Below, piece by piece: positions 1 to 51,299 of a DNA stretch of 51,299 bases. The notes beneath the pieces are model-generated. The model was not told the DNA's origin. It worked only from the letters and a program-made list of their open reading frames with translations, and searched no databases. Both the position numbers and the translations under genes were made by a program. Positions within the stretch are counted from its first letter, which is position 1. Every line of letters starts with the position of its first letter. Origin of the DNA: a virus (lineage: Duplodnaviria; Heunggongvirae; Uroviricota; Caudoviricetes); IMG/VR virus record IMGVR_UViG_641522650_000003. One strand, written 5' to 3'.

Positions 1-420
1 ATGGAACAGAAAGCATTATCTGCAGAACCCCGCAGATCATTTTCAAATGAGTTTAAACTTCAAATGGTTAAACTGGCTTCACAACCAGGAGCCTCTGTTG
101 CCCGTATTGCCCGGGAACACGATATCAATGATAACCTGCTGTTCAAATGGCTCAGGCTCTGGCAGAACGAAGGGCGCATATCGCGGCGTCTTCCGGTAAC
201 AACCTCTTCTGACACTGGCGTTGAATTATTACCTGTGGAGATAACGCCGGATGAGCCGAAAGAACCGGTGGCTGCTCTTACTCCGTCTTTATCTACTCAG
301 ACTACAGTTAGTGCCAGCTCCTGCAAGGTGGAGTTCCGTCACGGTAACATGACGCTGGAAAATCCTTCACCAGAGCTGCTCACAGTGTTGATCCGTGAAC
401 TGACCGGGAGGGGACGATGA
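1..420 (+). CDS. tnpA: IS66-family accessory protein TnpA (HTH)
   Basis: 139-aa ORF with motif ARIAREHDINDNLLFKWLRLWQNEGR typical of IS66 orf1; overlaps the next ORF by 4 bp. Confidence 0.75.
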   Translation: MEQKALSAEPRRSFSNEFKLQMVKLASQPGASVARIAREHDINDNLLFKWLRLWQNEGRISRRLPVTTSSDTGVELLPVEITPDEPKEPVAALTPSLSTQTTVSASSCKVEFRHGNMTLENPSPELLTVLIRELTGRGR

Positions 421-767
421 TCTCACACCCGTCAGGCACCCGCATCTGGCTCGTTGCTGGGATAACCGATATGCGTAAGTCTTTCAACGGGCTGGGTGAA
501 CAGGTACAGCATGTGCTGAATGATAATCCCTTCTCCGGTCACCTGTTCATCTTCCGTGGCCGACGGGGTGACATGATTAAAATCCTGTGGGCTGATGCTG
601 ATGGTCTGTGCCTGTTCACCAGACGCCTGGAGGAAGGCCAGTTTATCTGGCCTGCTGTGCGTGACGGCAAGGTATCCATTACCCGCTCGCAACTGGCAAT
701 GCTCCTCGATAAGCTGGACTGGCGTCAGCCAAAAACATCCCGCCTTAACGCACTGACAATGTTGTAA
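417..767 (+). CDS. tnpB: IS66-family TnpB
   Basis: 116-aa ORF with the conserved IS66 orf2 block (WLVAGITDMRKSFNGL ... HLFIFRGRRGDMIKILW); start overlaps the tnpA stop. Confidence 0.8.
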   Translation: MISHPSGTRIWLVAGITDMRKSFNGLGEQVQHVLNDNPFSGHLFIFRGRRGDMIKILWADADGLCLFTRRLEEGQFIWPAVRDGKVSITRSQLAMLLDKLDWRQPKTSRLNALTML

Positions 768-797
768 AAATGTCATGGCCGGATTATAAAAACGGCC

Positions 798-2390
798 ATG
801 AATCAAAAATACCTCATTCGCATTGCAGAACTGGAATGCCAGCTCCGTCAGAAAGACCAGCAACTGAGTCTGGTTGAAGAGACGGAGGCCTTCCTGCGCT
901 CTGCACTGGCCCGCGCCGAAGAAAAGATCGAAGAAGATGAACGGGAAATAGAACATCTGCGGGCTCAGATAGAAAAACTGCGCCGGATGCTGTTCGGTAC
1001 CCGTTCTGAAAAACTGCGTCGTGAAGTTGAACAGGCTGAGGCCCTGCTGAAACAACGCGAACAGGACAGTGATCGTTACAGTGGGCGGGAAGACGATCCG
1101 CAGGTTCCCCGCCAGTTGCGACAGTCTCGTCATCGTCGCCCGTTACCGGAGCATCTGCCCCGCGAAATAAATCGCCTGGAGCCAGAAGAAAGCTGTTGCC
1201 CGGAGTGTGGCGGTGAGCTGGATTATCTGGGGGAAGTCAGCGCAGAACAACTGGAACTGGTGAGCAGCGCTCTGAAAGTGATCCGCACAGAACGGGTAAA
1301 AAAAGCCTGTACAAAATGTGACTGCATCGTTGAAGCACCGGCACCATCCCGTCCGATAGAGCGTGGTATCGCGGGCCCGGGGTTACTTGCCCGCATGTTA
1401 ACGGGAAAATACTGCGAACACCTGCCACTGTATCGTCAGAGTGAAATTTTTGCCCGTCAGGGTGTCGAACTGAGCCGTGCATTACTCTCCAACTGGGTTG
1501 ACGCGTGCTGCCAGTTAATGACGCCGCTGAATGATGCTCTGTACCGTTATGTGATGAACAGCCGCAAAGTTCACACTGATGACACACCAGTAAAAGTGCT
1601 GGCACCGGGCAGGAAGAAGGCGAAAACAGGATATATCTGGACGTATGTCCGGGATGACAGGAATGCCGGTTCGCCAGAGCCTCCGGCGGTCTGGTTCGCC
1701 TACTCACCGGACCATCAGGGTAAACATCCGGAGCAGCACCTTAGTCCCTTCCGGGGTATCCTGCAGGCAGATGCGTTTAATGGTTACGATCGGCTGTTCA
1801 GTGCCGAACGAGAAGGCGGCGCGTTGACGGAAGCAGGATGCTGGGCTCATGCGCGGCGCAAAGTCCACGATGTATATATCAGTACCAAAAGCGCGACAGC
1901 GGAAGAAGCCCTGAAACTAATCGGTGAGCTGTACGCCATCGAGCACGAAATACGCGGGTTGCCGGTGTCTGAACGCCTGGCGGTCAGGCAAATGCAGAGT
2001 AAACCGCTACTGACTTCCCTGTATAAGCTGATGCAGGAGAAAGAACACACGTTATCGAAAAAATGCCGTCTGAGAGATGCGTTCCGGTATATCAGGAAGC
2101 ACTGGGTTGCGTTGTGCAACTTCAGTGATGATGGTCTGGCTGAGGCGGATAATAATGCCGCGGAAAGAGCGCTTCGTGCAGTCTGTCTCGGAAAGAAAAA
2201 CTTTATGTTCTTCGGCAGCGATCACGGTGGAGAGCGTGGTGCGCTACTGTACGGGCTGATCGGCACCTGCCGACTGAACGGTATCGATCCGGAAGCGTAT
2301 CTGCGCTATATCCTGAGCGTACTGCCGGAATGGCCTTCCAACCGTGTTGACGAACTCCTGCCATGGAACGTAGCACTCACCAATAAATAA
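798..2390 (+). CDS. tnpC: IS66-family transposase TnpC
   Basis: 530-aa ORF with coiled-coil N-terminus, CxxC...CxxC zinc-ribbon and the conserved C-terminus typical of IS66 transposases. Confidence 0.85.
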   Translation: MNQKYLIRIAELECQLRQKDQQLSLVEETEAFLRSALARAEEKIEEDEREIEHLRAQIEKLRRMLFGTRSEKLRREVEQAEALLKQREQDSDRYSGREDDPQVPRQLRQSRHRRPLPEHLPREINRLEPEESCCPECGGELDYLGEVSAEQLELVSSALKVIRTERVKKACTKCDCIVEAPAPSRPIERGIAGPGLLARMLTGKYCEHLPLYRQSEIFARQGVELSRALLSNWVDACCQLMTPLNDALYRYVMNSRKVHTDDTPVKVLAPGRKKAKTGYIWTYVRDDRNAGSPEPPAVWFAYSPDHQGKHPEQHLSPFRGILQADAFNGYDRLFSAEREGGALTEAGCWAHARRKVHDVYISTKSATAEEALKLIGELYAIEHEIRGLPVSERLAVRQMQSKPLLTSLYKLMQEKEHTLSKKCRLRDAFRYIRKHWVALCNFSDDGLAEADNNAAERALRAVCLGKKNFMFFGSDHGGERGALLYGLIGTCRLNGIDPEAYLRYILSVLPEWPSNRVDELLPWNVALTNK

Positions 2391-2476
2391 GCGTCAATAC
2401 GGTGCTCCGTTGACGCTGATATGACTTTCCGTGTCAAACCGGAATCTCTAATTTTGACGATTTTCTTTTTAGGTTT

Positions 2477-2667
2477 AATTCCCTGAGGGCGACGTAGCAG
2501 TAAATCCGACGGTGAATCACGCTGATATTCGCGGGTTGGATACCGCATTACAGAGGTCCGTCATATGAGCCTGCCACTTTCTTACGTCGCGAATCAGCTT
2601 TGTTCCGCCGTCGCCAAGCGCTAACGTGGGTTACTCTTGTACCGGGCTACGTCGCCTTCAGGGAACT
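2477..2667 (-). repeat. 22-bp imperfect inverted repeat pair bracketing ~147 bp in the 3' flank of the IS110-family transposase
   Basis: 2481-2498 ccctgagggcgacgtagc versus 2646-2663 gctacgtcgccttcaggg: 17/18 complementary, extendable to 22 bp with 2 mismatches. Confidence 0.6.
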
Positions 2668-49717: not shown

Positions 49718-50536
49718 TTAAGCAGCCATCTGATGATATTTTTCCCTGAAGGCTGCCGGGGAGATATTCCCCAGACGAGAGTGACGACGCTGACGATTGT
49801 AGAAAATCTCAATGTATTCCCGTATTACTGAGATGGCTTCATCCTGGTTATTAAAACGATAGTGGCTCAGGCTCTCATTTTTCAGCGTTCCCCAGAAGCT
49901 TTCCATCGGAGCGTTGTCGTAACAGTGACCTTTACGCGACATTGATGTTTTCAGACCAGACTGCTCCTGTATGACCCGGTAATCGTATGCGCAGTACTGT
50001 GAACCTCGATCAGAGTGGTGGATTAGCCCGGCAGGTGGGCGCTGGCTCCTGAGCGCCATAAACAGGGCTTTACCTGTCAGCTCTTTTGTCATGCGCTCTC
50101 CCATGGCGTAGCCGACAATTTCGCACGTATAAACATCTTTGATGCCAGCGAGGTACAACCATCCCTCCTGTGTGGCAACATACGTCAGGTCCGCCACCCA
50201 GACCTGATTTGGTGCTGTAGGAGCGAACGTCTGGTTCAGCAGATTTGGCGCAACTGGCAGATTGTGGTTCGGGTTCGTAGTCGCTCTGAACTTGCGTTTC
50301 TGCTTACAGCGTAGCCTTAGCTCCTTACGAAGACGTGCCAGTCGGTCACGACCAACGATGATGCCATTCTCTGCCAGCTCCGTCTGGAGCCGCCGGGTTC
50401 CATATGTTTCGCGAGTGCGGATATGTGCCACCTTAATCTCCAGTTTTAGCCGCTCATCACTTTGTTTTCTGTCTGAGGGTTCATGCTGTACCCAGTTGTA
50501 ATAACCGCTCCTGGATACACCAAATACCTGACACAT
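49718..50536 (-). CDS. IS600-like OrfB
   Basis: 272-aa ORF, one substitution relative to copy B. Confidence 0.9.
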   Translation of the reverse strand: MCQVFGVSRSGYYNWVQHEPSDRKQSDERLKLEIKVAHIRTRETYGTRRLQTELAENGIIVGRDRLARLRKELRLRCKQKRKFRATTNPNHNLPVAPNLLNQTFAPTAPNQVWVADLTYVATQEGWLYLAGIKDVYTCEIVGYAMGERMTKELTGKALFMALRSQRPPAGLIHHSDRGSQYCAYDYRVIQEQSGLKTSMSRKGHCYDNAPMESFWGTLKNESLSHYRFNNQDEAISVIREYIEIFYNRQRRHSRLGNISPAAFREKYHQMAA

Positions 50537-50571
50537 CGCTTCAATGGGAAATTGTTGTCGCCATTGTTCGA

Positions 50572-50874
50572 TTAACGCGTATTTTTCAGCGACTCCTGTG
50601 CAAAATACGCTGTTGCTTTTTTTAATATATCTCGCTCAAGGCGAGCTTCATTTAACGCCTTACGCAGTTGCAGAATTTCAGATTCCAGTTCAGCCACCGT
50701 GCGGGAACCAGGAGTACCGAGCCCTTTTCTGGCGGCGGTAACCCATTGTCCTAAAGTGCCTTCAGGAAGGGATAATCGGGAAGCGCCTTCACTGATCGAA
50801 AGTTGATTTTCAGGAACCGTTCTGACAGCTTCGGCTTTGAACTCTTTAGAGTAACGTTGGTTTTTTCTGCTCAT
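50572..50874 (-). CDS. IS600-like OrfA
   Basis: 100-aa ORF identical to copy A orfA. Confidence 0.85.
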   Translation of the reverse strand: MSRKNQRYSKEFKAEAVRTVPENQLSISEGASRLSLPEGTLGQWVTAARKGLGTPGSRTVAELESEILQLRKALNEARLERDILKKATAYFAQESLKNTR

Positions 50875-51028
50875 TATTAGCTCCTTCTGATGCCATTCTA
50901 TTTCAGGAAGGAGTGTCCGTTAAACTCAGGCTACCTCAATCAGCGCCAGTCAGTCAGCCGGAGCAAAAACAGAAGCCCCACTCATTCCGGAACAACCTTC
51001 TTAATAACCCATTTCAACGAGAAAATCC

Positions 51029-51299
51029 TATGTCAGAAATAAAATCGCTGGTCACTGCTGAGGCAGTGAAGGAAGTCCTGCGCTCTGAAGAAGTCCGGAG
51101 CGCACTGAAACAGCAACTTCGGCAGAACCTTGAGGCGCGTCTTGATGCAGAAGTGGATTCAATTCTGGATGAACTGCTGGGCGCACCGACTGTTCCGGAG
51201 CCGGAAGGCATTGCGGATGACAGTGCTGTTTCAGATGGCGTCGGGTCTCAGCCTGACGGTAGTGAAGGGCCTCAGCCTGACGGCGAAATGATGATGTAA
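51029..51299 (+). CDS. Hypothetical protein with acidic, Pro/Gly/Asp-rich C-terminus
   Basis: 90-aa ORF MSEIKSLVTAEAVKEVLRSEEVRSALKQQLRQNLEARLDAEV... ending ...GSEGPQPDGEMMM; stop at the window end. Confidence 0.4.

Follow-up and report, generated by a model that had tools for sequence, protein, structure and literature searches.

The question raised by this locus is what kind of genome it comes from and by which events it reached its present form. The 51,299 bp of DNA examined here (hereafter the window) are filed as a virus of the Caudoviricetes (IMG/VR record IMGVR_UViG_641522650_000003) and carry eleven insertion sequence (IS) copies in an Escherichia coli type chromosomal backbone joined to a lambdoid prophage. 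An earlier note made from the sequence alone had described the window as Shigella-like. This is literally right: positions 1357-21941 (20,585 bp) proved by sequence comparison to be 100% identical to, and an exact substring of, CP001063.1, which is Shigella boydii CDC 3083-94 (PMC2974192). The window thus belongs to a Shigella chromosome by identity to a named Shigella genome. Its equivalent in CP001063.1, computed by offset, is 794087-845385; it starts with the ATG of an IS66-family tnpA gene and ends with the stop codon of a DUF826 gene. In none of 5,426 E. coli genomes was any large part of the window present to 80% or more at a single place.

We have little doubt that the window is a decaying and rearranged segment of the S. 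boydii CDC 3083-94 chromosome, in which the E. coli rcnA-mlrA backbone and a lambdoid prophage were reshaped by IS1, IS600, IS2, an IS66-family element and ISSso6. The proposal of Shigella-type IS expansion with ongoing pseudogenisation is supported by the source of the DNA, by gene loss and by strain-specific lesions in sister assemblies. We set out below the evidence for each of the contributing events.

Sister assemblies and IS content of the window

Sister assemblies were retrieved by exact-sequence look-up of a junction-specific protein, the fusion of truncated molR with IS600 (11357-11941). The same IS order and flanks were present in five other complete or draft assemblies at 99.8-99.95% identity (CP026866.1, CP026762.1, CP026867.1, CP026795.1 and AMJS01000045.1), and two shorter contigs in addition share the IS architecture. 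This bears on the possibility that the IS copies and their junctions are artefacts, that is, collapsed or misjoined repeats in an assembly of the Sanger era (2008). Three of the IS1 copies (IS1a, IS1b and IS1c) are identical, the IS600 copies and the IS2 copies are 99.7-99.9% identical, and such repeats can mislead assemblers. However, the same architecture recurs in at least six independent assemblies, five IS copies are bordered by perfect duplications, and flanks rejoin to intact stf and IS600 frames (see below). Private lesions were found in the sisters as well. Locus L005 has extra IS copies inside IS2a and the IS66-family element and a split btsS; in L006 the truncated yehC is split; L008 has a further IS66-family insertion in the yehR remnant and a split mrp. 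In CP026795.1, a 278-bp deletion lies flush with the IS1c end (18450/18451 of that locus) and has removed a dinI-like gene; this is a fresh IS1 adjacent deletion. These private lesions support ongoing pseudogenisation and exclude an assembly artefact, an explanation which we regard as scarcely credible.

IS copies were located by self-BLAST, inspection of their ends and protein-family profiles; coordinates, duplications, deletions, junction sequences, source identity and strain differences could all be read directly. The eleven copies comprise four of IS1, three of IS600, two of IS2, one IS66-family element and one ISSso6, and add up to 13,470 bp or 26.3% of the window, in agreement with the eleven copies and about 14 kb that had been estimated. 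The count of five families needs qualification: there are five IS types, which represent only four families (IS1, IS3, IS66 and IS110) because IS2 and IS600 both belong to the IS3 family.

For IS1 we required a length of about 768 bp, terminal inverted repeats of about 23 bp, insA and insB' frames and an 8-9-bp duplication. All four copies are 768 bp long and run from GGTGATGCTGCC... to ...GGAGTCATTACC; their genes match the Pfam entries Zn_ribbon_InsA, HTH_Tnp_IS1 and DDE_Tnp_IS1 and bear the RefSeq label IS1A. IS1a (5078-5845), IS1b (14527-15294) and IS1d (22825-23592) lie on the plus strand and IS1c (19039-19806) on the minus strand; IS1d is one single-nucleotide difference apart from the three others. 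IS3-family elements were recognized by an orfA with helix-turn-helix domain, an orfB with rve DDE domain, ends of the type TG...CA and a duplication of 3 bp (IS600) or 5 bp (IS2). The IS600 unit is 1264 bp with TGAGG...CTCA ends and encodes an OrfA of 100 and an OrfB of 272 amino acids, IS2 is 1331 bp, and the RefSeq labels are IS600 and IS2 family. All three IS600 copies are on the minus strand. IS600a (11923-14522) is split by IS2a into 11923-12325 and 13657-14522; IS600b (43225-44487) measures 1263 bp due to a 1-bp deletion outside the reading frames; and IS600c (49675-50938), of 1264 bp, is a direct repeat of IS600b. IS2a (12326-13656) and IS2b (47676-49006) are both on the plus strand and 1331 bp long. 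A twelfth IS piece, absent from the eleven of the earlier note, lies in the iha island at 44881-44994: the C-terminus of an IS66-type tnpC (38 codons, 58% identity, E=3e-11).

Simple insertions, IS1-associated deletions and gene loss

Target-site duplications were found at only two of the four IS1 copies, the 9-bp sequences ACAGGAGGG at IS1c and GCATAATTG at IS1d, and at neither IS1a nor IS1b. The earlier figure of three out of four, given in a sentence that contradicted itself, has to be corrected accordingly. An intact duplication had rightly been assigned to one IS600-like copy; it is the CTC at IS600a, one of three, with none at IS600b and IS600c in the window. Both IS2 copies are flanked by 5-bp duplications (CCTGT at IS2a, ATCAC at IS2b), and CCTGT bears out the reported nesting of IS2 in IS600. 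Removal of IS2a together with one duplication copy restored a 1264-bp IS600 that differs from IS600c by 1 nt, and the same operation on IS1d restored an stf frame of 1056 codons. Five copies represent simple insertions that have kept their duplications: IS600a in molR, IS1d in stf, IS2a in IS600a, IS2b in the iha island and IS1c at the ribosome-binding site of a dinI-like gene.

The rcnA-mlrA interval measures 28.8 kb in K-12, of which about 10.7 kb survives in the window. Positions 3934-5077 correspond to the 3' part of rcnA and to rcnB. The rcnA fragment (3941-4520, plus strand) is 99.3% identical to K-12 and covers positions 96-283 of profile NF007454, the first 245 bp or so of the gene being missing from this locus, and rcnB (4739-5077, plus strand) is intact. 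The rcnB stop codon is abutted by IS1a, whose other flank lies in the interior of yehC. The DNA missing at this point, K-12 2187299-2190976 (3,678 bp), comprises yehA, yehB and the last 17 codons of yehC, which is accordingly 3'-truncated (5846-6514, minus strand) and whose frame continues into IS1a. The next segment, 5846-11553, contains the truncated yehC, yehD, yehE, mrp, metG and the start of molR (yehF); the reading frames of yehD, yehE, mrp and metG (6557-11216) are all intact. The 5' fragment of molR (11357-11922, plus strand) forms a 194-amino acid frame with a WGR domain that runs into IS600a, which, carrying IS2a, is inserted 566 bp into the gene. IS1b follows 4 bp from the IS600a end and abuts yehR at K-12 2211412. 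Here, the deletion amounts to about 14.4 kb and has taken the rest of molR, yehI, yehK, yehL, yehM, yehP, yehQ and the 5' end of yehR; the yehR 3' fragment (15295-15569, plus strand) lacks its first 187 bp. The last backbone segment (15295-18817) continues with yehS, btsR and btsS (15610-18528, minus strand), which are intact in CDC 3083-94, and ends with the first 68 bp of mlrA.

The two IS1 copies that are devoid of duplications therefore sit exactly at the 3,678-bp and ~14.4-kb deletions relative to K-12, as the earlier note had stated. These losses, of 3.7 kb (yehAB and the yehC 3' end) and about 14.4 kb (molR-yehR), would have arisen either by adjacent deletion or by recombination between direct IS1 copies; both routes leave a single IS1 without duplication at the deletion. 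A search for cross-matching flanks of IS1a and IS1b, as expected for recombination between these two copies, returned no 9-mer matches, and because the flanks share no 9-mers, adjacent deletion and recombination with a lost IS1 copy are indistinguishable. The order of events, and whether recombination or transposition formed the junctions that lack duplications, we infer.

All six genes that had been listed as inactivated (rcnA, yehC, molR, yehR, mlrA and stf) are indeed disrupted. What did not stand is the attribution to IS elements and to the chromosome throughout: mlrA is cut by a prophage, stf is itself a prophage gene, and molR is a pseudogene in K-12 too.

With 21 IS per 100 kb, the window exceeds by more than twofold the highest average reported for a Shigella chromosome, 9.26 IS per 100 kb (PMC7373316). 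At the latter rate, the Poisson probability of eleven or more copies is about 0.01, a value that should not be over-read as the window was picked after the fact. The window is a local IS hot spot even by Shigella standards, with the same reservation that it was chosen post hoc. Such a density could reflect a local sink of prophage, satellite and island DNA that tolerates insertions, and not reductive evolution of the lineage. Seven of the eleven copies lie in dispensable prophage or island DNA or within another IS, and another three IS, again in prophage debris, follow in the 6 kb beyond the right edge of the window. On the other hand, core E. coli genes were hit or deleted as well (rcnA, the yeh fimbrial operon, molR-yehQ and yehR), and the source is a Shigella, for which chromosome-wide expansion to 229-348 IS is documented in reference genomes, compared with a median of 32 IS per whole chromosome in E. 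coli (PMC7373316). We consider a local sink as the whole explanation rather unlikely; the two are compatible, as a hot spot may lie within an IS-expanded genome. Two points nevertheless weigh against IS-driven decay of the lineage as the account of this locus. A genome-wide IS load is not shown by one window in which most copies occupy insertion-tolerant DNA, and inactivation was not always the work of an IS, as mlrA and the prophage portal gene demonstrate, with molR being degraded in K-12 also.

IS expansion, pseudogenes and inversions have been described for Shigella by Hawkey et al. 2020 (PMC7373316) and Seferbekova et al. 2021 (PMC8072062). The window resembles what these authors reported in the expansion of IS1, IS2 and IS600, in loss by insertion, IS-mediated deletion and inversion, in the loss of fimbrial and curli-regulatory functions and in the differences between close strains. 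There is no difference in kind, only a higher density (21 versus at most 9.26 IS per 100 kb), and S. boydii of the CDC 3083-94 clade was outside the population-level analysis of both studies. IS-driven genome decay is well documented in Shigella, indeed defines it, and the genome was deposited in 2008, so the observation is correct and the phenomenon already known; the window by itself adds nothing new to it. Its practical value is that of a fully resolved worked example, which combines insertions, nesting, IS1-associated deletions, a rearrangement by IS homology and the movement of the virulence-associated iha gene between islands.

ISSso6, the IS66-family element and rcnA

The IS66-family element occupies 1-2417 on the plus strand, with a tip at 3937-3940. 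Its genes tnpA (1-420), tnpB (417-767) and tnpC (798-2390) match the NCBIfam profiles NF047595, NF033819 and NF033517 (TnpA, TnpB and TnpC). Its leftmost 87 bp, with the left inverted repeat, fall just beyond the window edge and were read from the adjoining sequence of CP001063.1 (L028, 793269-794086). Both the tnpA-tnpB-tnpC order and the repeats, which start with GTAAGCG (left GTAAGCGTAAACTG..., right ...CCGTTGACGCTTAC), place the element in the IS66 family. Uninterrupted copies at eight other loci end with ...GACGCTTAC (right repeat ...CCGTTGACGCTTAC), followed by an 8-bp duplication, and in the window the inner right inverted repeat ends with ...CCGTTGACGCT. The window copy is devoid of the 8-bp duplication, its left flank being AATCATTA and its right flank TGCTCAAT, which we read as the result of recombination after insertion and not as evidence against family membership.

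ISSso6 (2418-3936, minus strand, 1519 bp) is an IS110-family element of the IS1111 type. Its transposase gene, which extends from 3858 (or 3810) to 2683, carries the RefSeq label ISSso6 and matches NF033542, 'IS110 family RNA-guided transposase' (E=2.4e-81), as well as PF01548 and PF02371; with DEDD_Tnp_IS110 and Transposase_20 it has the DEDD-type transposase of the IS1111 group. Perfect 13-bp subterminal repeats (ATGACTTTCCGTG) are located at 2421-2433 and 3918-3930, which leaves terminal extensions of 3 bp and 6 (or 7) bp, and the transposase stop codon is followed by about 250 nt of non-coding DNA (2434-2682). Subterminal repeats, asymmetric extensions and a long downstream non-coding region are defining features of IS1111-type elements (PMC11187229). 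The IS110-family element had been thought to adjoin the IS66 end. We found instead that it sits inside this end, within the right inverted repeat, and is separated from the tip by 3-4 bp. The TTAC at 3937-3940 (plus strand) may be the tip of the IS66 right repeat, rcnA's own TTAC or both; the two are indistinguishable.

The position of ISSso6 is not peculiar to the window. An identical 1519-bp insertion, reading GACGCT[...]TTAC and always in a single orientation, is present in the window and in four other, differently flanked IS66 copies (loci compared: the window, L002, L014, L015, L017, L023 and L009), and L017 and L023 are one IS66 locus with and without ISSso6. For 20 of the 20 Shigella or E. 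coli plasmid matches listed, the alignment takes in adjoining IS66 bases. Conversely, thousands of IS66-type ends in E. coli align only to window position 2417, the exact ISSso6 boundary, and ISSso6 itself is present in only 41 of 5,426 E. coli genomes. One position, one orientation and no conventional duplication were thus observed for GACGCT^TAC in five independent IS66 copies and at one look-alike in rcnA. The non-coding region contains, at 2519-2528, a 10-nt copy of the junction between flank and IS end (ACGCTGATAT), a length that was reached in 7 of 500 shuffles. No more than a hint of a guide RNA, this copy would be consistent with RNA-guided targeting by ISSso6. No Rfam family matched the non-coding region, and a scan of the whole window at gathering thresholds gave no match at all.

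Tentatively, and with more doubt than confidence, we suggest that ISSso6 is an RNA-guided IS1111-type element for which the tip of the IS66 right repeat is the natural target. It would then live as a parasite on another IS, which it would probably disable, would occasionally enter chromosomal look-alikes such as the one around rcnA codon 82, and would provide, through its dispersed copies, homology for rearrangements of the S. boydii chromosome. A specificity of ISSso6 for IS66 ends was not found described in the searchable literature; of the 6 papers that mention ISSso6, none of the 5 listed dealt with targeting, as judged from titles and the openings of abstracts. There are precedents for targets inside other mobile elements. 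The IS1111-type elements IS4321 and IS5075 insert in the inverted repeats of the Tn21 family (Siddiquee et al. 2024, PMC11187229), and the IS110-family element ISEc21 targets transposase genes of the IS3 family (PMC11187229). ISSso6 shares with IS1111 elements the DEDD transposase, the 13-bp subterminal repeats with extensions of 3 bp and 6-7 bp, the long downstream non-coding region, the fixed site and orientation and the lack of a conventional duplication. It differs from IS4321/IS5075 and ISEc21 in that the apparent target is the terminal inverted repeat of an IS66-family IS, that a look-alike in rcnA was hit too, and that a guide RNA is only hinted at. ISEc45, which lies between ISEc43 fragments in E. 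coli H3, was considered as a parallel case and not used, as it interrupts tnpC and not an inverted repeat. A natural IS110/IS1111-family element that targets IS66 ends bears on the natural targeting rules and the off-target behaviour of bridge or seekRNA recombinases.

How ISSso6 came to adjoin rcnA can be judged from the sister assembly CP026795.1 (L009). There, rcnR and the rcnA 5' part join ISSso6 directly, without any IS66, the junction reading ...AAGCGCT, then ISSso6, then TTACTGCTC. Removal of 1519 bp restores an intact RcnA frame of 274 amino acids, which indicates that rcnA was probably hit by ISSso6 itself, at a look-alike of the IS66 tip (CGCT^TAC). In terms of the sites, a site-specific insertion would have occurred at AGCGCT^(T)TAC, a mimic of the natural IS66 target GACGCT^TAC. 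The sequence to the left of the window completes the picture: in CP001063.1 (L028), the IS66 left repeat abuts K-12 position 2215596, at the mlrA stop codon, and beyond it lie yohO and yehW in inverted orientation. The left edge of the window is therefore a rearrangement breakpoint. The simplest account is an inversion by homologous recombination between the rcnA copy of ISSso6 and a copy nested in an IS66 element at the mlrA stop codon near yohO, which would have flipped the block from the rcnA 3' part to the mlrA 5' part together with the prophage, created the junction of IS66::ISSso6 with truncated rcnA and left yohO-yehW inverted on the left.

Several observations count against this sequence of events. 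The reciprocal product, rcnR-rcnA5'-ISSso6-TAC-mlrA3', is absent among the three identical ISSso6 transposase copies of CP001063.1, all exact copies having been looked up. The case for an inversion is thus based on a single junction, and the rearrangement may have been more complex. Furthermore, there is an inconsistency of 1 nt, as IS66 sites gain 1520 bp and the rcnA site 1519 bp (window 3931-3945 compared with the IS66 sites in L016-L025). A pre-existing rcnA allele with a TTT-to-TT frameshift, which would be a perfect ISSso6 target, occurred in none of 5,328 E. coli genomes, the best match being 98.9% with one gap.

The 1-nt discrepancy vanishes if an IS66::ISSso6 composite, or IS66 and then ISSso6, transposed into rcnA right after ...GCGCTTTAC and CP026795.1 later lost the IS66 body. 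The composite is found at several loci, and the two T's of the right junction, ACTGCC-TTAC-TGCTCAAT, are exactly what an IS66 tip would supply. However, IS66 would then have had to insert, by coincidence, directly behind a 9-mer similar to its own terminus, and a 2.4-kb deletion would have to end exactly at the ISSso6 boundary with only 4-5 bp of microhomology. A second rearrangement would still be required, as the flank of the left repeat is yohO and not the rcnA 5' part. In addition, CP026795.1 resembles a clean insertion whose removal restores RcnA, and the comparison of L017 with L023 indicates that ISSso6 enters resident IS66 copies on its own. Transposition of a composite is less parsimonious than ISSso6 insertion followed by recombination, and we consider it quite unlikely. 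An 11-mer, GCGCTTTACTG (17 of 20 nt when extended), is present at the rcnA insertion point (K-12 2186157-2186176, window ~3935-3954) and also in the mlrA-yohO spacer (K-12 ~2215622-2215641, L028), 28 bp from the IS66 flank across the rearrangement; its presence at both sites could be a coincidence or reflect a shared pseudo-target.

The lambdoid prophage, its satellite remnant and the iha module

Homology with K-12 ends at 18817, 221 bp before IS1c, which therefore lies inside the prophage. The mlrA (yehV) 5' fragment (18750-18817, plus strand) is 68 bp long and ends at the prophage attachment junction. E. coli B19374 has the same junction and aligns continuously across btsS, truncated mlrA, the dinI-like gene, acetyltransferase, tfa, stf, lom and J. 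mlrA was thus split at bp 68 by integration of a lambdoid prophage and not by an IS; mlrA/yehV is a known phage integration site (PMC8112680).

The prophage right arm (18818-42065, minus strand) encodes the dinI-like protein, acetyltransferase, Tfa, Stf, Lom, J, tail proteins, E, D, C and the 3' part of the portal gene, and carries IS1c and IS1d. Its head and tail genes seem to be intact. The insertion point of IS1c coincides exactly with the ribosome-binding site of the dinI-like gene (19820-20068), and the side tail fibre gene stf (21513-25460, minus strand) is split by IS1d. The arrangement is reminiscent of the Stx1 phage Sp15/CP-933V of E. coli O157:H7 (PMC8112680), where mlrA is likewise split near its 5' end by a lambdoid prophage. 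In contrast to Sp15/CP-933V, there are no stx genes in the window and the prophage is defective: it has a split portal gene, an interrupted stf, replaced terminase and lysis regions and a rearranged far end.

The remaining portal gene, the C-terminal half of a lambda-B type portal (41286-42059, minus strand; TIGR01539 profile positions 242-457), is cut at the 8-bp site ATCGCCTT and stops at 42059-42065. Next to it lies a phage-satellite remnant (42066-43224, minus strand) consisting of an attachment end, a gene for a hypothetical protein of 93 amino acids (42862-43143) and the last ~70 bp of a small terminase gene, truncated by IS600b. This 1.16-kb remnant is 98.7% identical to one end of an element of about 10.9 kb in E. 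coli EC28 (L013 12027-22924), which by annotation encodes integrase, primase, single-stranded DNA-binding protein (SSB), major capsid, head decoration and small terminase proteins. The EC28 element resides inside a lambdoid portal gene with the 8-bp repeat ATCGCCTT at each end, and its precise removal yields a portal protein of 530 amino acids. We conclude that the portal gene of the window was, by this sequence comparison, probably split by integration of a satellite, independently of IS elements, just as mlrA was split by the phage. The same portal/satellite junction is common to at least 49 E. coli genomes.

Features of phage-inducible chromosomal islands (PICI), namely integrase, replication and primase genes, packaging and capsid-hijacking genes, site-specific integration and a size of about 10-15 kb, are present by annotation in the EC28 relative, the window having kept the 1.16-kb remnant. 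Like PICI, capsid-forming PICI (cf-PICI), P4-like satellites and 'prophages integrating into prophages' (PMC8112680), the EC28 relative is an integrase-bearing element of about 10.9 kb with a specific site in a prophage. It differs from PICI, cf-PICI and P4-like satellites in that the EC28-type integration site is the helper-type portal gene itself; the window holds a stump, and the element is satellite-like by its genes. Literature searches for satellites in portal genes returned nothing specific. A satellite-like element with its integration site in a lambdoid portal gene may be of interest to specialists.

The direct repeats IS600b and IS600c enclose part of an iha island (44488-49674, minus strand), which contains iha, the IS66-type tnpC remnant and IS2b. 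The adhesin/siderophore receptor gene iha (45221-47311; RefSeq name iha) is intact and encodes 696 amino acids (NF010012, 1617 bits). The same 7.7-kb IS600-IS2-iha-IS600 module (window 43225-50938) is found in other Shigella assemblies (L029, L030 and L033), in an island with dsbD, integrase and iucA (aerobactin), where its left IS600 keeps its own duplication, GAA. A composite transposon IS600-iha-IS600 was considered and rejected, as the outer flanks AGC and ATC do not form a duplication. Since neither outer flank is duplicated in the window, the module probably arrived by homologous recombination between IS600 copies and not by transposition. It probably took the place of the remaining satellite DNA and of the terminase-to-lysis region, so that about 16 kb of satellite and prophage DNA would have been exchanged for 7.7 kb from the iha island. 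A scan for tRNA and tmRNA genes found none in the window, which is thus without a tRNA-linked island boundary.

To the right of IS600c, the window closes with the DUF826 gene of a lambdoid late region (50939-51299, plus strand; called as 50895-51299, with the start inside IS600c). The adjoining 6 kb of CP001063.1 (L032, 845386-851397) contain another IS66 of this type, which is directly oriented, then fragments of a holin gene and of an IS3-type element and a copy of IS1, with zinT and msrQ next. In K-12, zinT/msrQ are about 145 kb from rcnA, which points to a further rearrangement junction to the right of the window.

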